From positions 1 through 64,000 of IMG/VR virus record IMGVR_UViG_3300014047_000001: a stretch of DNA of 64,000 nucleotides; one strand, 5' to 3'. Made by a program: the position numbers and the translations under genes. Source of the stretch: a virus (taxonomy: Duplodnaviria; Heunggongvirae; Uroviricota; Caudoviricetes). Within the stretch, counting starts at the first letter, position 1. Every line of letters begins with the position of its first letter. The notes below the pieces were generated by a model. It was not told the DNA's origin. It did no database searches and saw only the letters and a program-made list of their open reading frames with translations. Shown here piece by piece: positions 6,384-61,983 of the stretch.

Positions 6384-6965
6384 ATGATAAGAGAGATCAA
6401 GCGAGCAGATTTAGGAGATATTGTATTATTTTCAAAAGATGAAAATACTTTTGTTGTTTATAAACCTGATTGGAACTTACCATTAGATGATCCAAATTTT
6501 ATTGTTATCGGTATTGTTCTCGCACAAACAGAAACATTCAAAACTACTGTATTAATAAAAAGTTTCTTAATGGACTTGCCATTAAGAATACCAAGTAGTT
6601 ATTATGGAAAAGAACAATATATTCCGGTTTATGTAAAGTAGATGTTTGAAAGGTATGCAAGGGGATTTATAAAGAAATGTCCAAGTTATAAGAAATTAAA
6701 GAGGATGAAACTCAGAATTCTTTCTCTCACAAACCTCCTTGATTTTCTCAGCTATTCCATAATGTATGAATAGCTTAAAAAGATTATAGGTGATGAGAAA
6801 ACAAAGGAATTTTACAAGAAGATAGAGAACTATCACATATATGTAAATGATAGGGGTAAGTTGCGTACCTGGCAAAAGCCAAAAAATGAGAAAGATGATA
6901 ATAATGTAGAAGATGTCAGTACGGTTGGGGGTCATTTTCTTACAGTGTTTGATTTTTAGATTTAA
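6384..6965 (+). CDS. hypothetical protein with TAG read-through
   Basis: Frame 0 continues from track ORF 6384..6641 through TAGs at 6639 and about 6780 and 6957, to TAA at 6963-6965. The antisense track ORF 6696..6935 is low-complexity. Confidence 0.4.
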
Positions 6966-7729
6966 ACTCGTTTAGGACGTTTCACTCCTTTAATATAATA
7001 TGCACCAATAGGAGAACTTGTATGACGAGCATCTTGATAACGGGCTATTTCTATTTGATGCATATTGAATTTTTGATGTATCTTATATTTCTCCCATCCA
7101 GTATATCCAACTTGATGTAATTTATCCCAGAATTCATTATACTATGCTTCATTTTGGAATACCCATCCTTTATTAATACCAACAACAGTATTCTTACCAA
7201 TAGGAGTAAATTTAATTTTCTTAAATTTATTAATAAAATCCTAATCTAACTCTATGAAATTTTGATCGGATATGTAATGATTATAACCTTGATAATCTAG
7301 CCATAATCCGCAATTCATTATACCATGACACATCCATATACCTTCTATCTTACCATCAATTAACCTACCTATCTCATAAACTTCATAATCACTATCTTTA
7401 ATAAGCTCAAATATTGTAGGTGTTATATCTAAACAACCATGCTATCCGCTATAAATTGCTATTTGCTTTGTACTTACAAGCTTTATGATAAATTCTTCAC
7501 CAAATCCTTCTAAATTGAAATGTGCTTCTAATTCATCATAATTTACTTCTACATGTATTTTTGTATCAACAGCAACGAATCCCGGGTACACAACATGAAC
7601 AATGAATTTGTTTAAGTATTTAATACATTCATCAAGATAATGTTTGTTTATTTCATTATGTATTGTATTTGATAAATTTTTATTTTTATTATCTTTTACG
7701 CTGTTGAAATCAAAGTTCTCAAATAACAT
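6962..7729 (-). CDS. hypothetical protein
   Basis: Track ORF 7442..7729 ends on TAG. Manual translation continues in frame through three TAGs to TAA at 6962-6964, about 255 aa. A 57-nt divergent gap separates it from the terminase gene. Confidence 0.5.
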
Positions 7730-21749: not shown

Positions 21750-22282
21750 TGGAATTAAATAAGTATTCAATGCTTAGTTCAGAAAGAGCGGATGGTTCAA
21801 ACAAATTCAATGAGAATAAATTTGTTTTTAATCATCTGTTTACTCATGATGAGTGTTTTAACAGACTTGTAAAAGAAGCCGAAAAATATAATAACGGAAT
21901 TATTGTCGCTTTTGATTTTGACCATACTATTTTCAATTATAGAGAATATGGAGATAAGTTGGAAGAAATTGTAAAGGATAATAAAGCAGAAGAAGCTGCT
22001 TATATGTGTGTAGTAGAACTTCTTAAAGCTGCATCAAATGTAGGAATAATATTAGTTCTTTATACAGCAGAGAAAGATGAAAAAAGATTAGAAGTAAAGA
22101 AAGAATTTTGCAAGCAGCTTGGTATTAATTATACTTTTGTAAATGAGTCTCCAGTTATGAATGGTACTAATAAACCTTATTTTAACCTCATTCTTGACGA
22201 CCGTGCTGGTCTCGAAGAGTCATTTAATATACTTAGTAGGCTTGTAACAAAACTAAGCGATATGGAGCAAATAAACAAATAA
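21749..22282 (+). CDS. HAD-superfamily hydrolase-like protein
   Basis: HAD motif I (DxDxT) is present as VAFDFDHTIF. Confidence 0.45.
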   Translation: MELNKYSMLSSERADGSNKFNENKFVFNHLFTHDECFNRLVKEAEKYNNGIIVAFDFDHTIFNYREYGDKLEEIVKDNKAEEAAYMCVVELLKAASNVGIILVLYTAEKDEKRLEVKKEFCKQLGINYTFVNESPVMNGTNKPYFNLILDDRAGLEESFNILSRLVTKLSDMEQINK

Positions 22283-22299
22283 TTTAAATTTATAAATAC

Positions 22300-23163
22300 A
22301 TGCAGATTATAAATCTTATTAACAAGGACAAAGGTGATATTGTCTATGACATTATCAATTTTTCAGATGGTGAGAAACATCTCAAGTTTATCACAGAAAT
22401 CAATCGTAAGGATTCAGTAAAGGTAATTTGCCGCATTACTTCTATGGATGAGTTGTTTATTCTGATGCAGGTTGGAGATATTCTGAATCGCATGGAAGTA
22501 GAGTGGGCTTTAGTAATTACCTATTTGATGGGTATGCGTATGGATCGTGTAATGTCTTTCAATGAGGCATTCTCATTAAAGATTGTTGCAAAGACTATTA
22601 ATGATATGCATCCTGATGCAGTGTTTGTTGTTGAGCCACATTCAGACAGAACACTTAAGCTTATCAATAATTCTACACCATTGATGAATCACTTTGCTGA
22701 AGCAGCAATGACAGATCCGGAACATAATTATATGATTGTATTCCCTGATGCGGGTGCAAAGGCTCGTTATGGTGAGGCATTGGAAAATAAAGTTCCAATG
22801 ATGACATGCCATAAGAAGCGTGATCCAGCAACTGGTAAACTTTCCGGATTTGGTATTGATAATCCTGAAGTATTGAATGAATATCCTGAGTGTAATGCAT
22901 TCTTTGTTATTGATGATTTGTGCGATGGAGGCGGTACATTCTGTGGTATTGCTGATCAGTTGAAAGAACTTCGTCCAGATTTCCATCGTACACTTGCTAT
23001 CACTCATGCAGTAGCAGCAAGAGGAATCTATAAGGTAATGGATTACTATAATGATTTGTTTATTACAAATTCATATGCAGATTGGGGTAATGACCAGTTT
23101 GTAGCAAGTAATTCTGATCGTATCTTCGTGCTTGATACAGAAAAATATTATTTCAATGCATAA
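22300..23163 (+). CDS. ribose-phosphate pyrophosphokinase (Prs)-like phosphoribosyl-pyrophosphokinase
   Basis: N-terminal FSDGEKHLKF...RKDSVKVICRITS matches the Prs N-domain. A PRPP-binding loop (FVIDDLCDGGGT) is present. GC content is higher than in the flanking sequence. Confidence 0.6.
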   Translation: MQIINLINKDKGDIVYDIINFSDGEKHLKFITEINRKDSVKVICRITSMDELFILMQVGDILNRMEVEWALVITYLMGMRMDRVMSFNEAFSLKIVAKTINDMHPDAVFVVEPHSDRTLKLINNSTPLMNHFAEAAMTDPEHNYMIVFPDAGAKARYGEALENKVPMMTCHKKRDPATGKLSGFGIDNPEVLNEYPECNAFFVIDDLCDGGGTFCGIADQLKELRPDFHRTLAITHAVAARGIYKVMDYYNDLFITNSYADWGNDQFVASNSDRIFVLDTEKYYFNA

Positions 23164-34865: not shown

Positions 34866-37526
34866 TTATGTAGTAAATTTTCTTGTAATACCTAATGCTC
34901 TAACAGTTGATATATTAGAATTATTTATAAATGCTCTTGTATTAATATCTGATAATGTTTGATTTGCTTGTGATAAGGCAGCACCATTAAATTTCGTAAT
35001 AAGCTATGTATTATAATTTCCTGTATTTGATGATTCATGCCCTTGATCAAGTTTTACAGATTGATATGTACTACCAGAAACCCCAGCTTTTGCTTTTATT
35101 TCATTTGTATGCATATATCCAGGATTTCTAAAAGCAGAACCTCCAGTAAAATTATCTACGTGTGTTTCGAATTCACTTGAAGAGCGAATATAGTCAGGCA
35201 ATTCATATATAGCACCCATACCTCTATTAAACATCGACTGTATCGCCTTTTTATCACGCTGCATACCATGTTGTAAGGTATATACAACTTTAAGCTCTGT
35301 AGGAAAATCATCTGGCCCCAATTCTTCTCCAAATTGTACATCCATCTTCTCACATATCAAGTTACCAACAACAATAATAGGATTCAATGGATTACCGACT
35401 GTTAAATGCCATTCACCAACAGGATCACCAATAAGTATTGCATTCATTCCATGAATTTGTGGAGCAACAGATTTTGCAAGAACTTTTGAGTGCCACATTG
35501 TATTTAGATTATTAAATACATTATTAGCTGCAGCTTTTAAAGCATCATTATTTTTTCCACTTACTGCTTGCGCCCCTTTATCTAATATTGTAGATAATGC
35601 ATTTGTACCTTCACCAAATAATGCTGTTGTTACTGAACTTACAAGAGAACTTATACATGCTAAACCAGTTCCAAGCATACCACCTAATTTAGATGTAATA
35701 TTTGACCAATCAAAGCCTCCAGTATCACCAGTACCAAATTCTTTTACACCTTTTAACACAGTAGCAATTGCTCCATTATCACCAAAAATTTTACCATCAT
35801 AAAGTTTCTTCATGAAGTTATCACGCCATCCACCATCATGGAATGGATACATATGAGGTGTTATCATAAATCTATGGCCACCTCCCCAGAATATTGCAGT
35901 TGGAGAAACCATTTCCATACAGTTTGCCAGTATATCAAGCATTGCTGCTTTTGGATTTATACCGCCAATAGATTTTGTAACATATGTACATGTAACTTGG
36001 TAAGATGAATCAAATATAATACCTTCTTTTCTGCGTTTTACTGCTTGTATTCTATCTAACGGTCCTTGAATACGGTGTGAATATATATTTTCATATGGAT
36101 TCATATTTGCTGCTAACAGTTTCATCTGTGCATTTTCTGTCAAATCAACTTTTTTGTTTATCGCCATTGCCATTTTACCAAATGATAATATACGGTTGGT
36201 AACATTAGTACCTAAACTTAATAAGCCATTAAATGCATTATTATCAGCACCACCGAAACCACCATCACTACCAAACATTTCATCAATAACAGCTTGTGGA
36301 TCAGAACCATCTTCACCAGATACATCCCATATATCTGCAGTAGCTTCATCCCAATTAATACCCGTGGAGAATTTTAAAAAATCTTGGAAACTATTACCGG
36401 TTTCAGATCCAATATAAGAAACTACTGTACATCTTGGTGCAAACAATGTTGGTTTTTTTCCTCCGTCATTAGAAGATGTTCCTCCATTATCATCTCCGTA
36501 CATCTATTCAAATTGTAAATTATCTCTTGTTGGTGCATGATAGCGTCTTAATGTAATCAACCTATTATTTGGAATAATACCAAACCATTTACAATATACA
36601 AAATCTTGATAACTATAAGGAGTTCTGCCCCATATATCTTTATTAGACCATTCTATAATATGTGTTACTGTTGGTGATGCTACTTGTGTTATAGTATCAG
36701 GAGTACCTGTACCAGTATAACTATAAAATCTACGAGAGTCACGTATATCATACATAAAATTCTATGGGTTATCATCTGCACTTGTTGGCGCTTCAAAAGA
36801 ACCGACTAATTTTGTTAATGAATAAGGATTCATTAATGATGCAGCACCATAAAATTTACCATCTGTTTCATATTGGCGTATAACATCTTCTCCCATAACA
36901 GGAACTAAATCTCTCCTATTCTATGGAGAATTTGCAGCAATATCTACTTTTGGATCTGCTGGTTTACCATTTTTCTCCAAAGTTTTTTGGGCAACAGCAG
37001 CAGGTAACATATATACCATATCTGCAAATGCAGTAGCGACAGTATCAGAACCAAACGGAACTATTATTTTTGCTCCAGGTTCTCCATTATCAACAGCTTG
37101 TGATAATGACATATAAAATGTTTCCATACGTGATAAACGTGGATCCCATGCCATTAAATGCTAAATAGCTTCTTCATTCTTTTTTTCTGGACTTTCTTTG
37201 TCCAATTCTTCTTGTATAGCTAAACTATTCTCTCTACTACGATTTGCTAATAAATTGTCTCTTATATTATTAACAAAACTTTCTACAACTTCTCCATATA
37301 CAGTAGGATTATCCCCATACATAATAGCTAATGTATTAAGTACAGGGTTATCATAATTTTCATTTATCCATCTTTTAACATCGTCCTCTTTGTCTAACCA
37401 ATCTTTGACATTAATATCTACTTGATTACCAAATATATCTGTAAATGATTCATTAATATCTGTATTATTTGATAGATATGATGCTTTTATTCTTTCATAA
37501 AAATCATTTAATAATTGATCTGTCAT
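34866..37526 (-). CDS. virion structural protein (~886 aa)
   Basis: Track ORFs 35004..36503, 36504..36755, 36921..37154 and 37161..37526 are all in the same minus frame and abut at TAG codons. Read-through past TAG 35004 continues to TAA at 34866-34868. Confidence 0.5.
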
Positions 37527-40839: not shown

Positions 40840-43800
40840 ATGGGAAAACGATTAGACTTTGCAGGTGCAGCATTTGATCCAGTTGTAATGCGCTGGTATT
40901 ATGGAAATACAGATAAAGAACCAAATTCAATATATTCAGTTAAATCAGAAGTATTTAAGTAGGGTTATGAAGATCCTACTTATATGACTTTCCGTGTAGA
41001 ATTCGGAGAATGGGGAGCATCTGTTTTACATAGAAATGCTTTTACAATGCATGGAGGAATGGTATTGAATTCATAGCATCAAGATTATGATCAATTACCA
41101 AATGGCTTATTGGATTTACATTTTATTCCTGAAGAAACTTAGGAACAATATCCATTTTATACATTTAATAATCAAACATATTATAATGCTTATAATTATC
41201 TTAAACAACGTAATGAAGATGCAAGAGCAGAATATTTAAAGGCTTTTGTAACGGGATTATTTGAAATACAAAAAGATCACCCATATCTTTTTCAGAGTAT
41301 ATCAGGATTAGATGGTTTAAGCAATTTTTCACCAGAAAGTGGTCAACGTTTAAATAAAGATACATTTGTTACTATAGAATGTATTGAAGGGTTATCATTA
41401 AAGATAAAAACATTATTACAATTATATAGAAAGGCTGCATGGGATGATGCATGGCAAAGATGGGTTTTACCATTAAATATGCGTTAGTTCAAAATGATCA
41501 TTTATATTTTTGAACGTCGTATGTTTTAGGAAGTTAATAGGGTAAGTCCATTTACTTCTGAAAAACAATTACATACTGTAAATACAGATATTCCTGTTTA
41601 TGCATTTGAATGTAATCCTTGTGAATTTGTAATAGAGAATATATGGAATGGTAATTATGATGCAACATGGGGAGGTGATGCTGAAAAAACAAAGATAACT
41701 ATCCGTGTCAATAATGTAATGACATATTATAGAAATGGTTTACTTGATAGAAAATTGAATAATATATTAATTTATGATTTATTTGATGCTATAGATCGTC
41801 AAAGTACCACTACAGTATATAGTTCCAATACTAATATGTCTGTAAATCAAACAAAAGGTCAATTCTTAAAAAAACATATATTATTAGAAAATGAAGATGT
41901 TGCTATAAATGATTCTCGCATAATGTATGGTACAGGTGAAGAATTATTAGATGAGGATCCATATATAGCAGAACCATATTATAGAGAAATAATTAATACC
42001 ATGATGCCTCATTCTTTATTAGGTGAACGCATAAAAGCTAATTGGTGGCATGAAGCTACGGTAGAAGGCCGTGATTACTGGAGTAGCATGAGCGGATGGG
42101 ATGGTTTATTTGGCGGAGGCACATGGAGAAATATTGGTAAAGGCTTATGGAATGTTATAACTGCTGCTACTACGCAAATTCGTGTATCTCAGAATTACAG
42201 CACTCATAATTCTACAGTATTTTATAATATTCTTGATTATATAGAAACTGAAGGTTCCCCTGCAGAAGAAACTTATAGTATGGCTACTGAATATCTTTTA
42301 CCCGTACGTAAAGATTTGAAACATAATGCAGATGCAGCAACTCGTGGAGAATCTTCATGGGCTACAAGAGAAGTAGGTAAAGGCAAATTCAGAGATTAGT
42401 CAAGAGAATTGGATGCAATAGATTCTGAAGCATTAACAGAGAATGATTATTCATGGGCAACAGATGATAAAGATGCCGAAGGAAATCATGATTGGACAAA
42501 ATTCAGAGATAATCCTAATAAACGTCAAAAATCAAAATTTAACTGGAATAAAATAGATTCCAGTACAATGACCGGTGGAGATTTTTCATGGGCTACTACT
42601 GATTATAATGAAGCAGGAAATGTAAAAGGAAATGATTGGTAGAATTCTGCACAATATAAATCATCAGAAGTACCTCGTCAAAAGAATGGATTTGTATGGA
42701 ATAATATAGATTCTAATACATTAACTGGTGGAGATTTTTCATGGGCTACAGATGATAAGAATAATCATACAGATCATAAATGGGAAGATTTTGATAAAGA
42801 TCATATGCAAGACGGCCAACGTTAGAAACAAGCATTTGTTTGGAATAGTATAGATTCTAATAAATTATCGGAAAACGAAAGGTCAAAAGCAACGAAAGAT
42901 GGTAATAAAATACAAGAAGGACTTAATAGAGATTTATTAACAGAATATGATTATTCATGGGCTACTCAAGGAGAAGGATAGAAAGAACATGATTCTAATA
43001 TGGCATTCAGAAAACCCGATAATACTGAAAGAAATTCTGTTATAGATAAACCTATAGAAAGCGGGGGTATAGATTCTGCTGATTTAACAAATTATGATTA
43101 TTCATGGGCTACTCAAGACCTTATGAATGAATATGATCATCCTGTAAAAATAAAAGGTGGAGGGTTAGATACATCTATAAGAGAATAGAATAATAATATT
43201 CAAGTATCATTAGAAGATCCTCGTCTAGATCCTAGTTTAAATTTAATTTCAGTTGAAAGAAAAGATCGCAAGGGCAATAATGAAATATAGTATCCTATTT
43301 TAGATACATCTCGTGGATATGAAAAAACATTTAATTCAACAGATTTTTCCAATAGAGAAATGAATGAGCAGCTTCCCCCAACATTAGAAAGGGAATCTAA
43401 AAATTTTGTAAAACCTAATCTAAGAACTGTTGATGATACTGAACGTGGTATAAATGAAGAAATAATATTTGCTGGTTTAGATGAACGTACATTAAATACG
43501 GATATTGTATATGATCCATTAAAAGAAAGAAAATTAGATAAACCGGAATTCAGAGATATTGATAATGAACGTACTTTACCAGAATCACAATTTGGTGAAA
43601 TTCAGGGTACACGTAATATTGACAGAGATATTCAAATGAAATTAGAAAATCCTCGTTCAATACCAGAGCAAATAATGAATAATACTGAAGAAGAAAGGAA
43701 ATTTGACAGTAATTTACGTGAAACAGATTTTAAGGATCGTACAATAAATCAAAGCGTTGAACCATTAGAATATCAAGATAGAGAATAGAATAATAATGTT

Positions 43801-44877
43801 CATTTATAGATAGAAGATGCACGAGAACTTCCAAATTATCAAAATAACCAAAATGTATTAGAAGAGCGTAAAATTATTGATCAAGCATTAAGGCAACCAG
43901 ATAAAGAATTAATACGTCCGGAACATAGTTTAACTTCTGTAGATACGCATAAACGCGGTATAAATGATAATAGTTATTTCTCATTACAAAATACAGAAAG
44001 ATTCATAGATAATAATATTCAAATAGAAAATTATGAAGCACGTGTTATTAATGAGTAGCAATTAAGGAGTTTGAGCGATGAAGAAAGAAAGCAGGTAGAA
44101 GTTGTATTAAATCGACCAGATATATTAAATTATATTAGTAAAGCAACTAATGCAGCATTTAATGCAGAATTCCGTAAGGTTGATCAAGAATCATCAAGAA
44201 TAGACGCGACTGCTAAAGGTATGTTATAGAACTCTGAAGTATTCAAGAATTTACAATATGATGAAAATATAAAGGACAAGGATTTGACACAAGTTTTGGC
44301 TTTTGCAAAAGCTTATTCAGACGAATCTGACGCGATGAAAAATGCTTTCATTACTCGTATATAGGGGTTATAGAAAGAACTCAAAGAACAAACATTAAAC
44401 ACAGTCAGAGACATTCCTGAAATGGAGTATTAGATAATGAAAGATGAGAAATCGGAAAAGCAAGAACCTATTCTATTATCTGTAGAGCAAGTAGAGCAAA
44501 TAAAGAATAATGTAAAACTTGCTTCATTGGCAGACGCAGAAATAAGAGATTTATCTTATAAAGGTTTAATTTCTTTACATGATGCATTGGAGAATAATAT
44601 TGTAAAAACAATGATATTATAGAAACCTGATACCGTTGATGATAGAAGTATTGCAACAGATTTAGATAATCCACCTAAGCCAATTATAAATGGGAAAATA
44701 GATTAGGGGGAAGATAAAGATCCAAAGAAAATTGTAAATGGTAAGACAGAAGGTAATAATGCAAAGAATCTATATAATAATATTAGCAATGCAAAAATTG
44801 AGCAACCATCTAAGAAGCAAAGACCAATATTAGGACATAGATTAGATGATAAAAAATATAAAAAAGAGGGTTAGTAA
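40840..44877 (+). CDS. giant virion protein (1345 aa) with tandem (D/E)(Y/F)SWAT repeats
   Basis: Frame 1 is open from ATG 40840 through track ORFs 41719..42399, 42409..42642, 43000..43188, 43360..43788 and 44437..44622, crossing about 25 TAGs, to TAA 44875-44877. Confidence 0.55.
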
Positions 44878-44895
44878 AATTAACCCTCTTTTTAT
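44866..44895. terminator. rho-independent terminator (bidirectional)
   Basis: AGAGGGTTA-GTAAAAT-TAACCCTCT followed by TTTTTAT. It lies between convergent genes. Confidence 0.5.
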
Positions 44896-47800
44896 TATTG
44901 ACCTTCATTTTCAAAAACAGTATTTTGTAATTGTATCTCTGCTGTTCTATAATTATATGCATTATAATTATCTATTGTAAATTGTCCACCTGCATATTGT
45001 ATAGGGTTATTACCATAATAATCTTTTGCAGTTTTCCAGAAATCATCCTGGTGCTCATCATCTGTTCCAATATGTATATGCTTGCTTTGCGTACCCATAT
45101 CATCTGTGGAAACCTCTATATAAGCAGAAACACCATGATCATACATAAGCTTTAATACACCGCCATTACCAAATATATGATTCTTTAATACGTCATTAAA
45201 AGATATACCGTTATTAATTATATCAATAGCTTCACCATATAAATGTCTAGAATTATTTGTACTGATATACATTATATTTCCACGAGCATCCTTACATTTA
45301 TACTTATCTCCACTCTTTACAAATGCATTACCTTCAACTTTTTCTCCATTAGTATCTACTGCATATCTCCTTGCACCAACGAGTTTTATTTTATGTGCAG
45401 AAGACTCATCTATAGCTCTGTAAATATCTTTCATGAAATCTTTTAAACCAGTCAAAGGTACATCACCCACGTTATCTTCTTCAGCTACTTTATTATCCTA
45501 AGAAATTTCTTCTTCTGTTTTATTTGCTGTTACGTTATCACCTGTTGGTGTATTTGGATTAGGATTTGTACTTTCATTTGTAGGTATATTATTCTATTGT
45601 TCCGCTAAAGAATTCTTTACATTTTGATAACCAGGAATTGGCCATTCTCTGCGTGTTAATTCTAATTCTGTAGACCATGCTGATTCAGCGCGCTTTGGCG
45701 TACTTGTAAATATCCATTTAATAGATTTAATAATAAACCATCCAGATAATGTTGTATAAGTACAAGTGTTTAAGAAACGTGCATGCAAAGTATTTTCATC
45801 AACTTTTACTTCTTTTCCTGTAGATGGATCAAATGTTACCGGATTAGTGCTCAAAAGTGATGTTAATTTGTTATTGTCCAAGAATAATGTAGGAATTTTT
45901 TCACCTCTCATCATTGCAAAGTTTGCGCCATTCAATTTAACCTTTACAATCTTCTTAAGTAATTGCATGTTATTAATCTTATTATGCTCAAAAGCGGCAT
46001 CATAAAATTTATTAACATTACCGGTAGCTAATTCATTACTTCCTGTATCTGCAATAGTTTCTCCATCGGAATCTGCCATCATATCAGAATCTCTACCTCC
46101 ACGTTTCTTTGTATTCTATTTAACATAAGAACCATTATCTGCTTGTACATAAGTTCCATTAGTACCTGGACCTACTAATATATAGAAACCACCATTTGGA
46201 TATTTAGCAGCATTATATGGTATTGAATATGTCATTTCTACTGCATTATTATCTGGTTCAACGCCCTGATTATTAATAACAAAATTTGTTGTTACTGATA
46301 TACCAACCTGCTTTGTTATTTCTGCTGCTTGATTGACTTCTTTAAAATCTATAGCATATAATGCTGTACCAGCTTCATCATCATTCGGTATATTTGTAAT
46401 TAATTTCAACTACGGACGCGGAGCTGATTTTTGTTCTCCATCTGTTGCAGAACCATGCTGATTATCTACACCTCTATTATGCTTAAACACATCATTAAAT
46501 AAAGTTATATCAAATGTTTCATCAGGACCGTCTTCACCAAGCATTTTATTAACATTCAAGAAAGTCAATCCATAACGGGGATCTATCCAAGCATCAAAGA
46601 ATGATTCAAAGTTTTTCCATGAATGTGCAACTGTATCCTTAATATAATCCATTAAATTTGAACCTTGTGCTTTACCCTCTTCATCTGAAGATTCTGCCAT
46701 ACAATACCATAATTGGTTGTCATCTGTATTTTCTGGATCACAGAAGAAAAAGCCTAATCCTAATTTTGCTGCTGCATCTATCATTGCATCTCTACTAGTT
46801 CCTGCAAAAGAGAATGACATATTAGCATTATGTAAATTAGGTATAAACAATTCGCCCATTATGGTAAAATTATAAGGAACATTTAATTGATTCTATGAAA
46901 CTTCACTACTATCTACATAAGTTATAAGAAAATCACAACGTAAAGATTTTATCATACCATGACCTGGCGAACAGAATACTGCAATAATATCGCCTTCTTT
47001 TGGAACATTTGTTTTTAATAAGTCATTATTAGTTGTTGTAATTTCTAATGTAATTGTAGGAATAAATCCTACACATGCTATTTCCATTCTATCTATTTCT
47101 TTCTATGAGAAATAATAATCATTAATACGAATAATAGGATATGTAGCGCCAACTTCCAATGTAATATCTGGCTGATTTCCAGAAAGCTTCTAAGAACCTG
47201 CAGACATATCTTCAACATTTGCATATGTTGCTGTACTTGAATCCGCTGAATAATGCATACCAGTAGCAGGATTTATAGGTGTATTATTACCATCCATTGG
47301 TAAAGATAATTCGTCAAGCTATATAGTAGGTTCACTATACTTATAAATACGTGTACGTTTTTGTCCGTCTTCAGTACCACCAGCTGATAACTATGAATAT
47401 ATATTATCGCCGGCAGTTGCCAATACACTTGGTGCATTAGAAGAATATTGATTCTATACACCTGCAAGCTGATCATAATAATTATCCATATTATTTTCAT
47501 CTATTGGTGGAGTGGGTGCATTTCCATCATATCCTTCTGAATAAAATAAATTTGCTTCTCTTATTCGACGTCTTCTTAAGCCTTTTTCATGGCGAGAACC
47601 CGGTAATACATAAGAAGATTGCCATGTAGTTGTAACCTTTGATTTATTTTTATATCCATTACCCTATATAGTTTTTCCTAATGTAGTACGTGATATATTA
47701 CCATGATTATATGCAATACTAAACATAGCATCAAACATACTTTGCGTCATACCAGTATGCCATATTTTGTTTACATCCGCAGAAATAGTTTTTGAATCCT

Positions 47801-47975
47801 ACTTAAAGAATGCCATACATTCTGTATCTGAATAACGTTTACCATTAACGAGATCTCTAGAATGATGTCCAAATCCAACAGTTGGATATGATTCGCCATC
47901 TAATATATATGCAACATTAGAATAACCTTCTGCAGTTTTTAAAAAATTAAACCCGTTTTGACTTATCTATGCCAT
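44895..47975 (-). CDS. virion-associated dual-domain lysin: N-terminal GH24 (T4-lysozyme-like) plus C-terminal M15 peptidase (1026 aa)
   Basis: Track ORFs 44895..45470, 45594..46082, 46116..46409, 46410..46859 and 46893..47087 share one frame and are joined by TAG. Manual translation of 47088..47975 is open apart from TAGs. The N-terminus TAEGYSNVAYILDGESYPTVGFGHH matches the T4 lysozyme EG...TIGIGH motif. The C-terminus SRHLYGEAID...HIH is M15/VanY-like. Confidence 0.6.
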
Positions 47976-48122: not shown

Positions 48123-51100
48123 TTATTGTTCTACTTTAGTCCAATTATAACTACCTAAATAATAACTATCTGTACTCATCCATGTATCATAACCAGTACT
48201 ACCAGCAGGTACTGTTAATGTGCCACCTCGCTTTACACTGTTAAATGTACGCTTTACTATTGTAGGTGCTGTCATCGCATTAGATACTATATTTGTTAAA
48301 CCGCTACAATCATTGAAAGCATAATTACCAATACTTGTAACACTATTTGGAATTGTTACACTTGTTAAACCGCTACAGTTACTGAAAGCCCAACCACCAA
48401 TGTTTGTAACACTATCCGGTATGACTATACTTGTTAAACTACTACAACTACCGAAAGCACTACTACCAATACTTGTAACATCGCTTGGTATAACCGTATT
48501 TTTGCAACCACTAATAAGAGTATTTGTTGCAGTCTCAATAATTGCATTACAGTTATTACGTGAGTCATATACTGTATTATTGCTATCAACGGTAATACTT
48601 GTAAGACTACTACATCCCATGAAAGCACTACTGCCAATACTTGTAATACCACTACCAATGATTACATTTGTTAAACCATCACACCATTCCAAAGCATAAT
48701 TACCAATACTTGTAACACTATTTGGTATATTTATGCTTGTAAGACCACTACATCCTTGGAAAGCACTTTCACCAATGCTTGTAACTCCACTACCAATAGT
48801 TACACTTGTTAAACCGCTACAGTTATTGAAAGCTTTATTATCAATGTTTGTAACACTATCCGGTATGACTATACTTGTTAAACTATTACAACCATAGAAA
48901 GCCTCATTACCAATTGATGTTACTGAATCTGGTATAATTACATTCGTAAGTCCTGTACAATAACTGAATGCATTGTTACCAATTGATGTGATACCTTCAG
49001 GTAATGTAAATAAAACAGTATGTTCACCTGTTGAATTAAATGTATAGTATTTTTCAACTTTTTTTTCCTCGCCATCCACTTTCATTGAACTAAAATTATT
49101 AGTACTATCTAATAATGTTGTTGGGTGGCTTGTATCAGCAACATTATATTTGCACAATACTTGGTTTTCTTCTAATATTGTCCAATTATACTTACCTAAA
49201 TAATAATCGTCGGTTCCCATCCAAACATCATATCCAGTAGAACCTGCTGGTACAGTTAATATACCATCTGACTTAATACTTTGGAATGTCCAATCTTGTA
49301 TAGTTGGAGCAGTAGTTGCATTACATGTTATATTCATAAGACCTGAACAATTATAGAATGCGGTATCACCTATAGATGTTACTGAATCGGGTATAGTTAT
49401 GCTTGTAAGTTCAGAACAATTTTGGAATGCAGCGCTACTTATTGATGTCACAGAGTTGCCTATAATTACACTTGTAAGTCCTCTACAACCAGAGAATGCA
49501 GCACTACTTATTGATGTCACAGAGTTGCCTATAATTACACTTGTAAGTTCAGAACACTCATAGAATGCAGCACTACTTATTGATGTTATAGAATCGGGTA
49601 TAATTATGCTTGTAAGTCCTGAATCAGAGAATGTATATTCACCTATTGATGTTACTGAATCGGGTATAGTTATGCTTGTAAGCCCTGAACAACCAGAGAA
49701 TGCATAATCACCTATTGATGTGACTGAATCAGGTATAGTTATGCTTGTAAGCCCTGAACAATAAGCAAATGCATGATTACCAATTGATGTCACTGAATTA
49801 CCTAATGTCACACTTGTAAGTGCAGAACAATTATTGAATGCATATTCACCTATTGATGTGACGCCATCTGCTAATGTAAATAAAACAGTATGTTCACCTG
49901 TTGTACTAAATGTATATGAATTTGCAATTTCAAGTTGTTTAACTCCATCTATTGACATAGAACTAAAATTATTAGTAGTACTATTTAATAATGTTGTTGG
50001 ATTTGCTATAGAAGTAACATTATATTTGCATAATACTTGGTTTTCTTCTAATATTGTCCAGTTATACTTACCTAAATAATAATCGTCGGTTCCCATCCAA
50101 ACATCATATCCTATAGAACCTGCTGGTACAGTTAATATACCGCCTGCCTTAATATGGTAGAATGTATTAGATGATATAGTTGGTGCGGTAGTTGCATTAC
50201 ATATTATACTTGTAAGTCCAGTACAATAAGCAAATGCGCTTCCATCTATAGATGTTACAGAATTACCTATTGTTACGCTTGCAAGTGCTGAACAACAAGC
50301 GAATGCACCTAAACCTATTGATGTTACAGAATTACCTATTGTCACACTTGTAAGTCCAGTACAATTAGCGAATATACTTGCACTAATTGATGTTACAGAA
50401 TTACCTATTGTCACACTTGTAAGTCCAGAACAACCCATGAATGCACCTCCACCTATTGATGTTACAAAATTAGGTATAATTACACTTGTAAGTCCCGAAC
50501 AACCAGAGAAAGCATTATCACCTATAGATGTTACAGAATTAGGTATAATTACGCTTGTAAGTCCTGAACAATTTTTGAATGCATTGTTACCTATAGATGT
50601 GACAGAATTACCTATTGTTACACTTGTAAGTCCAGAACAACCCATAAATGCACCTCCACCTATTGATGTGACTGAATTTGGTATAATTATACTTGTAAGT
50701 CCTGAACAACTATTGAATGCAGCTCCATCAATTGATGTTACAGAATCTGGTATAGTTACGCTTGTAAGAACAGAACAATTTTGGAAAGCACCAGAACCTA
50801 TTGATGTCACTGAATTTGATATGATTATGTTCGTAAGTCCAGAACAATTGACGAATGTGCCTGGTTCAATTGATGTGACAGAGTTACCTATAATTACACT
50901 TGTAAGTTTAGAACAATCTTGGAATGCACTTGTACCCATTGATGTTATACCATCTGCTAATGTAAATAAAACAGTATGCTCACCAGTTGTATCAAATGTA
51001 TATGAATTTGCAACTTCTTTTTCTTCTCCATCAATCTCCATTGACTTGAATATATTCTGCCCATAGCTTGTTCTTAATGTTGTTGGTATGCCTGTAGAAG

Positions 51101-51944
51101 TAACATTATATTTGCATAATACTTGATTTCCTTCTAATATTGTCATTGTCCAGTTATACTTACCTAAGTTTTCTGAGTAATAATCATCTTTTCCCACCCA
51201 AATATCATAACCCGTAGAACCTGCCGGTACTATTAATGTACCTCCAGACTTAATACCTTGGAATGTATTTGGATATATTGATGGAGCAGTTATCACATTA
51301 CATATTATATTCGCAAGTGCAGAGCAATTATTGAATGCACCATAACTAATATCTGAGATTGAATTACCTATTGTTACATTTATAAGTCCAGAACAATCAG
51401 CAAATGCACCTGCACTAATTGATGTTACTGAATCTGGTATAGTTATGCTTGTAAGTCCAGAACAATATTGGAATGCGGCAGAATTAATATATATTACAGA
51501 ATCTGGTATAGTTATACTTGTAAGAGCAGAACAACCAGAGAATGCACCTGGACCAATTGAGGTAACTGAGTTGCCTATAATTACGTTTGCAAGTGCAGAA
51601 CAATTTTCGAATGCTCCTGTATCTATTGATGTTACACCATCTGCTAATGTAAATAAAACGGTATGTTCACCAGTTGTATTAAATATATATGATTTTGTAA
51701 CTTCTTTTTCTTCATCATCCACTATCATTGAACTAAAATTATTAGAACTATTAAATAATGCTGTTGAAGTATTAATATCAGTAACATTATATTTGCACAA
51801 TATTTTAGATCCGGTAAAAGGATTAAAATAAGGTTTATTCTAATCTTCACATAAAGATACATTGGGTAAAATAAATTTTGATATATCAGATGCATAAGCT
51901 TGATATTCCTATACAGTATTAAATAATTTTATGTATCTCCCCAT
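48123..51944 (-). CDS. BspA-type leucine-rich-repeat (LRR_5) surface/receptor-binding-like protein (1274 aa)
   Basis: The 1225-aa track ORF has no internal TAG. An upstream in-frame ATG at 51942-51944 is reached across two TAGs. About 22-aa repeats (F..C..L.S(V/I)TIP.SVTSIG..AF) are organised in four modules of about 300 aa, each opening with NQVLCKYNVTS...TTGEHTVLFTL. The gene ends at TAA. Confidence 0.65.
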
Positions 51945-58813: not shown

Positions 58814-59959
58814 ATGATAGCAGTACCTGATAACTTATTGTTACAACCACATATACAAAAGGTATTAAATGCTTATAAACATCAGTATAATCAGAATTCT
58901 TATGGTGGATTATATATAAAATCTATTACAACAGAATTAAATTATTATGAGGTGTTAGATGGTGCTGAAACTTATAAGCGTGGTAAAGTAAAAGAATTTT
59001 TATATAAGATTACAAATTTTTTTGGCCTTACTAATAAAAATTTGGAATATGTGGAATTTAATATTTCTAATTTACGTAATTGGGTATATTATCCAACTTT
59101 CGATCCTAAACCAACAGAAGTTGGTATTAAACGATTTGAATATGAATATAGAGAATGTAATTGGAGTAAACGACCTACATTTACTTTTGATATACCAAAG
59201 GTATTAAGTGAAATGCATAATATACCTATAATAACCCGCCAAATGGTTATTGATGCTATTAATAAAGCATTACATATATCAAATAATCAATTGACTTTAT
59301 ATGTAAGAAACGTGGAAGTTGATGGAAAACCTTGTACTATTAAATTTATATTTGACATTGTTAGCTATGATACAAATTATGTTCCTATAGAAGATGATAT
59401 AACTAAACTTGGCCAAGAAGCACTTACAAACTTCTTATCAAATGTTAAGAATCATGCAATGCTGACGAAGATAAACAGTATAGAAAATGGCAAAGTTAAT
59501 ATTGCAAAAGACGGTACAGAAACATATGTATTAGACGAATATATACCAAGTATAGAAGAAATGATAATGTTCTCAGATTTTGCATTAAAACAAAATGGTA
59601 TAGAGTTAAAGTCATTCTTTAAGAAAAAACTTGAAAATTATGAACGTACTGAGTTACAAGCATTTTATGATAAAAGTCAATTATTGAATTATATAGATCC
59701 TAAAACAATATTTAATGAAGCTGCAGCAGATAAGGAAGATGATATTAAGCCAAAGGCAGTAAAGACACGTGTTAGAAAAAAGAAAGAAGAAACAAAAAAA
59801 GAAACTGCCGAAGAGAAAGTCATTAAAGACACAAAAGTTAAAGTAGCAAAAACAACCACAAAAACCACAAAAACCACAAAGGCTACTAAGAAAAAAGACG
59901 ACGAAAAAGAAAAGAAAATAACAAGAAAGACTGCAGCAAAAAAGAAGAAGGAAAATTAA
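58814..59959 (+). CDS. hypothetical protein with Lys/Thr-rich basic C-terminal tail
   Basis: 381-aa ORF. A tandem 9-nt ACAAAAACC repeat encodes TTKTTKTTK. Confidence 0.5.
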   Translation: MIAVPDNLLLQPHIQKVLNAYKHQYNQNSYGGLYIKSITTELNYYEVLDGAETYKRGKVKEFLYKITNFFGLTNKNLEYVEFNISNLRNWVYYPTFDPKPTEVGIKRFEYEYRECNWSKRPTFTFDIPKVLSEMHNIPIITRQMVIDAINKALHISNNQLTLYVRNVEVDGKPCTIKFIFDIVSYDTNYVPIEDDITKLGQEALTNFLSNVKNHAMLTKINSIENGKVNIAKDGTETYVLDEYIPSIEEMIMFSDFALKQNGIELKSFFKKKLENYERTELQAFYDKSQLLNYIDPKTIFNEAAADKEDDIKPKAVKTRVRKKKEETKKETAEEKVIKDTKVKVAKTTTKTTKTTKATKKKDDEKEKKITRKTAAKKKKEN

Positions 59960-59982
59960 TTCCTTCTTCTTTATTTTTATAA

Positions 59983-61020
59983 TTATTTTAACATTGAATA
60001 TCTGAATACTTTATTTGGACACCATTTATTAAAGAATTCCCCTGGTACCCACTTACCATTCCTTAATTTAATTTTATCAGATTCTTTCTTGGTTAATGAT
60101 GCATTCATATCATGGAGTAATTCTCTACGACGTTTACACCATTCTTTATATTCTGGTGTATCTTTCTTGAATTCATGTGTTGCCCATTCTTCCCAAGCAT
60201 CTAATTCTGCAGAATATTTTTTATATTCAGGATCTTCAAATTTTGAATATGAACCAGGTTTGTTTAATACCTTTTTATACTTCTGTTGAAGTTCATCATA
60301 TTTTGCTGTATATGCATCATAATATGGTGTATCTATTTCCTCTATATATTTTTCTAACTGCATTAATTCAACATACATATTAAAAGCAGTTTCTTCATCA
60401 TATCTTGTTATAGGTTGACCATTAGAATTTCTTTCAATTTTGTCTTGTTTCTTTTGTTTCTTTTCATCAACATAATAAGTGACTTTACCTGTTTGTTTTA
60501 TTATAAAACCGTATGTATATATTTCTCCATTAAAATAAAAACTATTGGTATCAAAAGAAACAAACACTAATCCTTTATCCGGAGAAACTAATAAATCTCT
60601 GCACTTCTACTTTGCATCCTATTCATCTTCATCATATAAATCCAGCTATCGAAGTATTTCTACAAAATCTTCATCCTTATGATGTAAATATGCCCAGTTG
60701 AATCCATTACGTAAAATCTTAACATAATCCGAAATAGGTTTACTCCATTCAAATCTATTAGTTACACGCTTTTTAGAACCATACCAATATACAGGCATTT
60801 CATCTTTGTCTATTGCATCTTTACCACCACGCATGAATGGGATATTCATTGACTGCAGAATTGCACTAATTTTTACATTTTTCTATACAGCATCTCTCAT
60901 AGCAGATGTAAGGTGAGAATTTTTATTATCTGTACTTACACTGCTAAAATCAAATGCTTCATTTATTTCTTTTTTTACTATCTTTGCCACCTCGTTTATA
61001 ATTTTACTATATAAAGACAT
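59983..61020 (-). CDS. hypothetical protein (345 aa) sharing an N-terminal module with the DUF285 gene
   Basis: Track ORFs 59983..60567 and 60646..60849 share a frame, joined by TAGs. It is extended to an ATG near 61020. The N-terminus [25 protein letters not shown] closely matches that of the adjacent gene. Confidence 0.5.
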
Positions 61021-61041
61021 AAATTAAAATTATATTTTTTA

Positions 61042-61929
61042 TATTTATTTTTTAATATTTTTTGGCTTATATTCATCTATAATATTACAATTATCAAACA
61101 TATATTCTATACTACACCTAGGATTTATATTCCAATTACTAATATCATGATTAAATTCTGTATTTTCAAACATAAAGCTCATTGTCATAACATTACTAAC
61201 ATCCCATTTACTGATATTCTAATTAAATGATGAGCGCTGAAACATCTAAGACATTGAAGTAACATTACTAACATTCCAATTACCAATATTTCTATTAAAA
61301 ACAGAATGTGCAAACATATAATGCATATTAGTAACATTTCCTACATCCCATTTGCTGATGTTATTATTAAATTTAGAATATGAAAACATATAGCTCATAT
61401 CTGTTATATTTTCAACATCCCAATTACTTATATCTCCATTAAATTCAGACTGCCAAAACATATATTGCATATTTATTACATTACTTACATCCCAATTACT
61501 TATATCACCGTTGAATATTGAATTTGCAAACATATAATCCATATTAGTTACCTTACTTGTATTCCACTAAGATATATCACCATTGAATTTGGTATTTTCA
61601 AATATATTTGACATATTAGTAATATCAGATGTATCCAGCCAATTAAGATCGCAATCAGGTCCAAAGAGTTTTATAGAACGAGTTACTATTGCTTTTAATT
61701 CCATTCTACTGATAGGTTTAACAATAGGCATAGAATTTTTCATAGATTTTAAAAATTCTTTTTCTTCCTATGTTAATTTTTTATATGGTGTTTTTATAAG
61801 TTCCCTAATTTTTGGAAATATATTTATAGGTTTCTTTCCTTTATTAATAGATCCAAAATCAAATGCTTCATTTATTTCTTTTTTAACAACTTTTGCAACT
61901 TCATTTATAATTTTTTTATATAATGACAT
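61042..61929 (-). CDS. DUF285 (PF03382)-type repeat protein
   Basis: Track ORF 61246..61542 is extended in both directions through TAGs: 5' to an ATG near 61929 and 3' to a TAA near 61042. It carries about seven repeats of F..S.FNGDIS.W(D/N)VSNVT.M..MF. The antisense track ORF 61583..61978 is hydrophobic low-complexity. Confidence 0.55.
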
Positions 61930-61983
61930 AAACAAAATTATAATTTTTTTATATTTATTATATAAATGTAGTTATTAATATTT

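Follow-up and report, generated by a model that had tools for sequence, protein, structure and literature searches.

Two adjacent genes on the minus strand of this stretch of 64,000 nucleotides, referred to here as the window, start with the same short peptide, the tag, and then continue into unrelated proteins (Table 1). The cargo of gene 1 is DUF285 (PF03382), matched by Pfam in three stretches at 8.4e-78, with 258 bits against a gathering cut-off of 25. No Pfam or PHROG family was found for gene 2, nor was there a tblastn match to it among 50,697 phage records, and the AF2 model of its last 207 residues (pLDDT 46) is too poor for use. Both genes sit amid nucleotide-metabolism genes, outside the tail block, and the hairpin beyond gene 2 probably marks the end of a two-gene unit. 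The tandem pair is kept in related metagenome contigs (L003-L012), where orthologues of gene 2 are found on L004, L009 and L011. A previous sequence-only reading of the window gave the same bounds for gene 2, while its lower bound for gene 1 (61042) lay 3 nt too far, beyond the last base of the TAA stop.

Table 1. Features of the two tagged genes and their surroundings in the window.
Feature	Position	Strand	Description or evidence
Gene 1	61045..61929	-	294 aa; tag, linker of ~70 aa and DUF285 (BspA-like) repeats; 4 in-frame TAG (Gln)
Gene 1 stop codon, TAA	61047-61045	-	Translation, code-15 ORF list
Tag copy 1 (codons 1-25)	61855..61929	-	Family HMM E = 4.6e-13, partly circular because both window copies are among the 16 profile seeds
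Shared upstream DNA of gene 1	61930..61960	-	ATAAATA box 61958-61952 (-29..-23 from ATG)
Gene 2	59983..61020	-	345 aa; same tag, then cargo of no known family; 4 in-frame TAG
Tag copy 2 (codons 1-25)	60946..61020	-	Family HMM E = 1.6e-12, partly circular for the same reason
Shared upstream DNA of gene 2	61021..61050	-	ATAAATA box 61048-61042 (-28..-22 from ATG)
Terminator-like hairpin	59941..59972	+	Consensus scan: 13-bp stem, then T-run; between the convergent 58814-59959(+) and gene 2

The window has a GC content of 29%, and megablast matches it only to Prevotella phage Lak genomes, in short stretches with 80-84% identity. TAG has to be read as a sense codon for many of the long ORFs in the window to appear (code-15 ORF list). 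Orthologues from metagenomes have Gln at the TAG positions of the window. Those of gene 1 on contigs L003-L012 have CAA or CAG there, and the proteins P0006 and P0008 read KKLTQ where the window has KKLT followed by TAG. The window is from a Lak-like Prevotella megaphage with genetic code 15, which is the code described for Lak phages in published work (PMC11165621). TAG read-through is therefore required in both of the tag genes. Also encoded in the window are a tail tube, a baseplate hub, a tail-lysin and a BspA-type LRR protein of 1,273 aa. There are no head genes in these 64 kb, that is, no T4-type protease, capsid or portal.

Both proteins open with MSLY(K/S)KIINEVAK(V/I), and 23 of their first 25 residues are identical. 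BLASTP aligns the two at E = 4e-13, with the alignment confined to residues 1 to ~50, and a degenerate 39-nt pattern has exactly two sites in the window (0.00 expected). In the coding DNA of the tag copies 65 of 75 nt are the same (87%). Likeness continues for ~34 nt upstream of both ATG codons, where 31-32 of the 34 positions are identical between the genes and the sequence is nearly invariant among strains. The whole repeat is ~106 nt long (61855-61960 against 60946-61050). The sequence-only reading had described a shared N-terminus on unrelated downstream domains, with ~85% DNA identity over ~80 nt; the alignment bears out both points, the domains being DUF285 and one of no known family, and adds the upstream DNA.

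The near-identical DNA had also been taken as the mark of a recombination hotspot or a recent swap, and this part of the reading is not supported. Of the 10 nt differences between the tag copies 7 are synonymous, giving a pS of 0.53 and a pN of 0.049. With synonymous sites already half saturated, the tag DNA cannot have been duplicated recently. Concerted evolution of the two window copies is likewise ruled out by the pS values. The orthologues of gene 2 in other strains diverge from the window copy as much as the paralogues do from each other. The contrast between pS and pN means that selection acts on the peptide, and the tag peptide is therefore under purifying selection. The two copies are alike at the DNA level because the peptide is strongly conserved and the genome is A/T-rich.

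Cargo exchange, which had been proposed as well, is seen in one clear case. The metagenome contigs L007 and L009 are 94-100% identical over the 700 nt upstream of gene 1 and through codon 36 of this gene. Past codon 36 the similarity is random, and a different DUF285-type sequence is present. This junction is found in two independent assemblies. It is one direct case of a cargo swap at the 3' edge of the tag.

An AF2 model of the N-terminal 53 aa of gene 1 has a helix at residues 3-23 (pLDDT 81-85), followed by an unstructured linker at residues 24-36. The tag is predicted to be a basic amphipathic helix. A Sec or lipoprotein signal peptide, which would need a hydrophobic core of ~10 or more residues behind a short basic N-region, is rejected, as the tag is Lys/Glu-rich, has no hydrophobic run and is predicted to be an amphipathic helix. 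Two candidate cleavage sites are present, one after E10 (IINE/V, the slash marking the cleavage point) and one after E21 (EINE/A, reading on into AFDF).

The upstream part of the repeat contains the heptamer ATAAATA, which in the case of gene 2 overlaps the TAA stop codon of gene 1. In the whole genome of the relative Lak-B8, in which 603 ORFs were called under code 15, ATAAATA is the most enriched 7-mer upstream of genes (140 observed, 16 expected), and its position peaks at -40 to -30 from the ATG. The box is associated with TAG-containing genes in Lak-B8 (p = 8e-19). Likewise, TAG codons are present in 16 of the 18 window genes that have the box, compared to 9 of the 43 that do not (p = 1e-6). 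The box precedes 14 of 16 tag genes in Lak-B8 and 119 of the 587 other genes (p = 3e-8), and the tag is absent from most ATAAATA genes. Lak-B8 encodes a gp55-like late sigma factor (phrog_234 at 4e-11); in T4, gp55 recognises the late promoter TATAAATA. Due to the link between the box and TAG-containing genes, the presence of the gp55-like late sigma and the likeness to TATAAATA, the ATAAATA box is a candidate late-type promoter with a short leader.

The tag extends far beyond this pair of genes. A profile was made from 16 seed rows, these being the two window copies and 14 from other phages (Lak-B8, Lak-C1 and metagenome members). In Lak-B8 the profile search identifies ~16 tag genes, 12 of which have the tag at the N-terminus at E < 1e-11 (residues 1-33). 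The remaining ~4 are weaker or displaced: a single copy is internal, another is C-terminal, and two or three score less well; the tags of 272006 and 204373 are not N-terminal. Some of the Lak-B8 tag genes are neighbours, as in the window (39832/41507, 317549/317872 and 203133/204373). Among 1.84 billion representative proteins, 1,267 clusters (50% identity) match the profile at E <= 1e-3. The match falls within the first 12 residues in 141 of the 150 best representatives and elsewhere in the other 9. Family members are located on contigs of 460-780 kb and carry no annotation, and a Pfam search of ten long representatives found no domains. In small ORFs that neighbour IS1595 transposases the tag helix is likewise present, at the C-terminus. 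A tblastn search of phage records with the 33-aa tag gave 15 weak matches (E 0.8-7), yet all are in Lak genomes, at the starts of unrelated genes, and are true family members. Exact and degenerate scans of IMG/VR for the tag DNA found nothing, and the profile search found no further copy in the window. A search for related loci with the tag alignment matched 367 stretches, none of which tblastn confirmed, the query being too short for it. Genes with the same opening, for which a search had been suggested, are thus numerous outside the window.

The consensus of the main family, the 'LYESIM' tag, is MNKKQKKALYESIMKSVAKTVKKxLNE. In the logo of 139 representatives conservation is near-total as far as the (L/I)-N-E end, which has L/I in 135, N in 129 and E in 136. 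Conservation vanishes at the residue right after this end, where Asp/Glu-rich sequence follows. Such a sharp end of conservation after L-N-E is, judging from the alignment, the pattern that a processing site would produce. The tag of one family protein (P0082) is an intermediate form, and it is proposed that the window tags are a local, shortened version of this family-wide Lak N-terminal tag. The shared targeting or attachment module of the sequence-only reading is therefore upheld as an architecture, and one more general than the pair, with its function a matter of interpretation. The tag is not covered by any Pfam, PHROG or source annotation, and searching the literature for the motif returned nothing relevant, with no mention found in the Lak phage papers searched.

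The proteins that carry the tag in Lak-B8 are diverse. Among them are a sigma-70 factor spanning regions 1.2 to 4, a Phage_lysozyme protein that also has a membrane segment, a pair of proteins from the 'RTIDxKLW' family and many small, very acidic proteins. Two of these, the sigma-70 factor and the membrane-segment lysozyme, are reminiscent of proteins brought into the cell by other phages. Six of the small acidic tag genes have 23 Gln codons between them, and none of these is TAG (joint P = 4e-6), which suggests that these genes are expressed before recoding, a time that would be early for head assembly. Acidic-aromatic motifs such as AFDF and LFDD often occur after the tag and look like binding motifs. 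The synteny around the window locus is not kept in Lak-B8, where the DUF285 homologue of gene 1 is found two genes from the S77 prohead protease. This homologue has a related short N-terminal tag, MKKYIYNLME/SLFDD, that is common to at least 11 Lak-B8 genes.

The T4-type protease, capsid and portal are known from the relative Lak-B8. Its Peptidase_S77 (PF03420) scores 55 bits against a cut-off of 27, and phmmer matches it to T4 gp21 at 1.4e-8. The portal matches Portal_T4 at 1.6e-59. The capsid protein is 75% identical (tblastn) to a protein of the Lak-like contig L016 that has a precomputed Pfam Gp23 match, although compared directly with T4 gp23 it reaches only E = 0.047 (phmmer). Only gp20 and gp21 were matched among the T4 head proteins, phmmer searches of Lak-B8 with gp22, gp23, gp24, gp67 and gp68 giving nothing significant. 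The start of the Lak S77 protein is ...LTLNE/S, and the Lak capsid protein has AKLNE/DA near residue 56. In number of [LIV]NE sites the S77 protein ranks first among the 603 Lak-B8 proteins, with 6 where 1.0 is expected (p = 7e-4), a feature seen post hoc; this tripeptide is common in the proteome, with 290 occurrences.

The best explanation of the tag is that it is a capsid-targeting propeptide that is cleaved after Glu, in the manner of the T4 CTS, and this is put forward tentatively, with slightly more doubt than confidence. It is read in this way because of the T4-type head genes, the (L/I)-N-E end, the T4 CTS anatomy and the NE-rich S77 protein. The comparison with T4 allows the steps from prohead-core binding through cleavage and packaging to injection to be inferred, and these would proceed as follows. 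Both window genes may be driven from their own ATAAATA box, ~28 nt upstream, as a candidate late-type promoter. The basic amphipathic helix of the tag would bind to the prohead's scaffolding core, and whatever protein follows the helix would become enclosed as a result. The gp21-type (S77) prohead protease would then cut after the invariant Glu of (L/I)-N-E, which in the window genes is between E21 and A22. The mature cargo would be freed inside the head and delivered with the DNA. As the tag and the box alone are shared, recombination at the edge of the tag can bring in new cargo.

Several observations count against a propeptide. The six TAG-free acidic tag genes hint at expression that is early for head assembly. 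The tag is sometimes internal or C-terminal, as in 9 of the 150 best representatives, in Lak-B8 272006 and 204373 and in the ORFs beside IS1595. Many of the cargoes are strongly acidic, unlike the basic internal proteins of T4, and the L-Y of the main family is at residues 9-10, not 3-4 as in T4. In addition, [LIV]NE is a common tripeptide and its enrichment in the protease was seen post hoc. The wider proposal is that a single 27-residue tag, cut by S77, loads dozens of unrelated proteins into the giant Lak capsids for injection, with the released basic peptides perhaps serving as counter-ions for a 550-kb genome. In this broad form it is rather unlikely.

Other explanations have to account for the same peptide on unrelated proteins. 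Were the repeat an expression cassette, with promoter, leader and first codons serving expression or RNA-level control and no role for the peptide, the ~34 nt with the ATAAATA box would be the conserved element. They are indeed 31-32/34 identical and nearly invariant among strains, and T4 ipII and ipIII also have a common ribosome-binding region. However, synonymous sites vary freely where amino acids do not, the peptide is kept in the 1,267 clusters with different codons and upstream DNA, and most ATAAATA genes have no tag, which makes this very improbable. That the repeat is a functionless remnant of tandem duplication or gene conversion is the least credible of the alternatives. It would suit two adjacent genes in the same orientation, and tag genes are neighbours in Lak-B8 also, yet the half-saturated synonymous sites mean that the copies are old, and the two paralogues are as far apart as they are from the orthologues of other strains. 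The pair is conserved in several strains, and whole genomes have the tag preserved on unrelated proteins. The substitution pattern largely excludes both of these.

A role for the peptide outside of the capsid interior could take two forms. The tag may be an uncleaved helix that docks its proteins to one partner, such as host RNA polymerase, the replisome, the membrane or a phage-made compartment. A basic amphipathic helix before a flexible linker (AF2) fits this, as does the fact that a sigma factor carries it, along with small acidic proteins whose genes lack TAG and may be early. Internal and C-terminal copies, which are less natural for a propeptide, and the AFDF and LFDD motifs that often come next and look like binding motifs also point in this direction. 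However, the strict position at the start of the protein (141/150) and the abrupt end after L-N-E are a better fit to a processed signal, and the link of the ATAAATA box to TAG-containing genes points to the structural-gene class. Docking of this kind is considered unlikely, though it is a serious rival. It is less probable still that the tag anchors alternative accessory proteins to the virion surface, on the tail, the baseplate or the capsid exterior, even though tail tube, baseplate hub, tail-lysin and BspA-type LRR genes are carried in the window, DUF285 and LRR are typical binding domains, and both tagged genes have TAG codons and the ATAAATA box in common with structural genes. At 21-27 residues the tag is no folded anchor domain, the sigma-70 factor and the many small acidic cargoes are not fibre-like, and a single site would be contested by ~16 different proteins in each genome. 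Nor are the two genes in the tail block, being amid nucleotide-metabolism genes.

Of the phages in the human and animal gut, those of the Lak group rank among the largest; they are uncultured, and for most of their genes no function has been assigned. One tag on ~3% of Lak genes would place many unknown genes in one functional class, and the share becomes ~4-5% when the related ESLFDD tag family of Lak-B8 is added. If the tag is a capsid-loading signal, the T4 CTS principle would extend to a distant lineage and to a much larger scale. Metaproteomes would then be predicted to contain mature N-termini right after L-N-E; for the window genes, the predicted starts after L/I-N-E are AFDFGSINK... 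and AFDFSSVSTDNK.... The injected set would include LRR/DUF285 binders, a lysozyme that spans the membrane, a sigma-70 factor and numerous acidic proteins, and the tag would be a catalogue of the injected arsenal, as well as a handle for packaging foreign proteins. Whatever its function, it is a strong, undescribed sequence family missed by annotation pipelines. It is hidden from annotation because genes broken at TAG codons are called as fragments.

In tail-fibre and tailspike anchors, too, the N-terminus is conserved while the C-terminal part can be exchanged through recombination where the two meet. These anchors, which belong to fibrous receptor-binding proteins, fold into domains of ~100 residues or more, whereas the Lak tag is a single helix. 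Its length of 21 residues, the sigma-70 and Phage_lysozyme cargoes and the location of the genes outside the tail block do not fit an anchor of this type. In encapsulin cargo-loading peptides and the N-terminal signal of P1 DarB, a short terminal peptide is enough to send diverse cargo into an HK97-fold shell. These signals have other sequences, usually no proteolytic removal and no common descent with the Lak tag, and the likeness is one of mechanism only.

Proteolytic maturation in giant phages is closer. The cleavage motif of the phiKZ type is S/A/G-x-E, as opposed to the (L/I)-N-E of the Lak tag. In phiKZ, 201phi2-1 and SPN3US the propeptides of head and inner-body proteins are cut C-terminal to Glu, often at several sites (PMC9026906, PMC5694885). 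The window tag similarly has more than one candidate site (IINE and EINE), and these also are very large phages with many head-internal proteins. The giant-phage propeptides, documented by mass spectrometry, have no single sequence common to all substrates, unlike the Lak tag.

The closest parallel is in T4. Both lineages have a gp23-family capsid, a gp20-family portal, a gp21-family protease and a gp55-like late sigma, and in both an A/T-rich late-type box is located upstream. The T4 CTS, which is removed by gp21 from IPI, IPII, IPIII and Alt, is likewise a short N-terminal peptide on otherwise unrelated proteins, with an (L/I)-x-E end that is followed by a small residue. The adjacent T4 genes ipIII and ipII both start MKTYQEFIAE/A and have identical 5' DNA, including the ribosome-binding region, before unrelated bodies (PMC3012670); ipI starts MKTFKEFTSTTTPVSTITE/A. 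The window pair is similarly made up of adjacent genes with a common peptide and 5' DNA. Cleavage by T4 gp21 is after (L/I)-x-E, as in MKTYQEFIAE/A, ...STITE/A and, in gp23, ...FLTE/AEIGG (PMC8442874, PMC9026906). The internal proteins of T4 share only this short N-terminal CTS ending in the gp21 site, and the CTS suffices to load foreign proteins (PMC3012670, PMC9026906, PMC8442874). As with the Lak tag genes, the cargo varies between T4 strains (PMC3012670, PMC9026906).

Targeting by the T4 CTS hinges on positions 4 and 7, its processing on positions 8 and 10 (PMC9026906). The window tags have Y4, I7, I8 and E10 where IPIII has Y4, F7, I8 and E10, although ten residues are too few for statistics. 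The main Lak family is different in this respect, with L-Y at residues 9-10 and the E at residue 27. There is no detectable sequence homology between the Lak tag and the T4 CTS, and the likeness is too short to have statistical meaning. The Lak tag is 21-27 residues long, strongly basic and predicted to be a long helix, compared to 10-19 residues for the T4 CTS, and some of its copies are internal or C-terminal. Its cargoes are often very acidic, whereas the internal proteins of T4 are basic. A Lak genome has ~16 tagged genes and the cargo families number over 1,000, where T4 has a handful. The principle is one known from T4, while the sequence family, the scale and the cargoes, notably the sigma factor, are new.

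Throughout the window TAG is read as sense (code 15), for example at 61770-61772, 61567-61569 and 60883-60885, and orthologues carry CAA or CAG at positions where the window has an in-frame TAG. Genes containing TAG are present on both strands, interspersed among TAG-free genes that are for the most part metabolic. An ATAAATA box lies 28-37 nt 5' of the ATG of 18 genes in the window, 16 of which contain TAG codons, compared with 9 of the 43 others (p = 1e-6). ATAAATA is also the most enriched 7-mer upstream of the genes of Lak-B8, the complete genome of a relative (MK250027.1). Since Lak-B8 has a gp55-like sigma factor, the box is a candidate T4-like late promoter. A second word enriched upstream in Lak-B8, GTATCTTTGTA, looks like a Bacteroidota -7 box.

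Several other features of the window were noted. A 255-aa protein (6962-7729, minus strand) has the N-terminus MLFENFDFNSVKDNKNKNLS, which is similar to the segment EAFDFSSVSTDNKNSHLTS immediately after the helix in gene 2, the tagged gene whose cargo has no known family; the DNA upstream of the two genes is also similar. On weak statistics (E about 0.2), the protein may be a relative that does not have the helix. A hairpin with a 13-bp stem and a T-run (59941-59972), located between gene 2 and the convergent 58814-59959(+), is likely to be a two-way terminator. Adjoining the tail-lysin gene (44895-47975) is a gene composed of 69-nt repeats (48123-51944, minus strand), encoding a leucine-rich repeat protein of the BspA type, 1,273 aa long (Pfam LRR_5, 3.9e-138), from which the main tag is absent. 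The 1,345-aa ORF at 40840-44877 (+) has 21 in-frame TAGs and repeats of ~50 aa with the core D(Y/F)SWAT.

Coordinates of boxes, tagged genes and helix-containing ORFs
Feature	Source	Position	Strand
ATAAATA box	window	61952-61958	-
ATAAATA box	window	61042-61048	-
ATAAATA box, further examples	window	upstream of genes at 1191, 6309, 7729, 40840, 51944, 53452	
TAG-free acidic tagged genes	Lak-B8	41507, 101599, 139735, 232285, 236085, 533906	
Second-tag genes, examples	Lak-B8	21989-23059, 35361-36425, 67074-68312, 225834-226760, 327792-329708, 501288-502763	
Small ORF, C-terminal helix LYESIMRDVAKIVKKAI	contig L013	8001-8189	
Small ORF, C-terminal helix LYESIMRDVAKIVKKAI	contig L014	3351-3539	
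Small ORF, C-terminal helix LYESIMRDVAKIVKKAI	contig L016	7539-7958	
Small ORF, C-terminal helix LYESIMRDVAKIVKKAI	contig L017	1753-1860	

The helix LYESIMRDVAKIVKKAI also occurs C-terminally, in small ORFs immediately 3' of IS1595-family transposases. This arrangement is found on more than 130 contigs, both Lak-like (28-32% GC) and others (39-41% GC).

Six small, strongly acidic tagged proteins of Lak-B8, with net charges as low as -41, avoid TAG completely (joint P = 4e-6), yet the ATAAATA box is present at their genes despite this avoidance. Lak-B8 also encodes a complete sigma-70-type factor with the main tag at its N-terminus (199564-200577, minus strand), 2.5 kb from a tagged lysozyme gene. 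Should the tag act as a packaging signal, this factor would be virion-delivered. In the 581-aa product of Lak-B8 498148-499893 (minus strand), a lengthy acidic region and a C-terminal domain are fused to the S77 prohead protease domain; the protein contains six [LIV]NE sites and has the look of a protease-scaffold fusion.

At least 11 Lak-B8 genes, including the DUF285 homologue near the prohead protease, open with an N-terminal tag of a second family, MNKxIKxLxE|SLFDD..., which hybrid forms (LYESLFDD) connect with the main tag. Like the T4 internal proteins' capsid targeting sequence, this second tag also ends in L-x-E, at residue 10.
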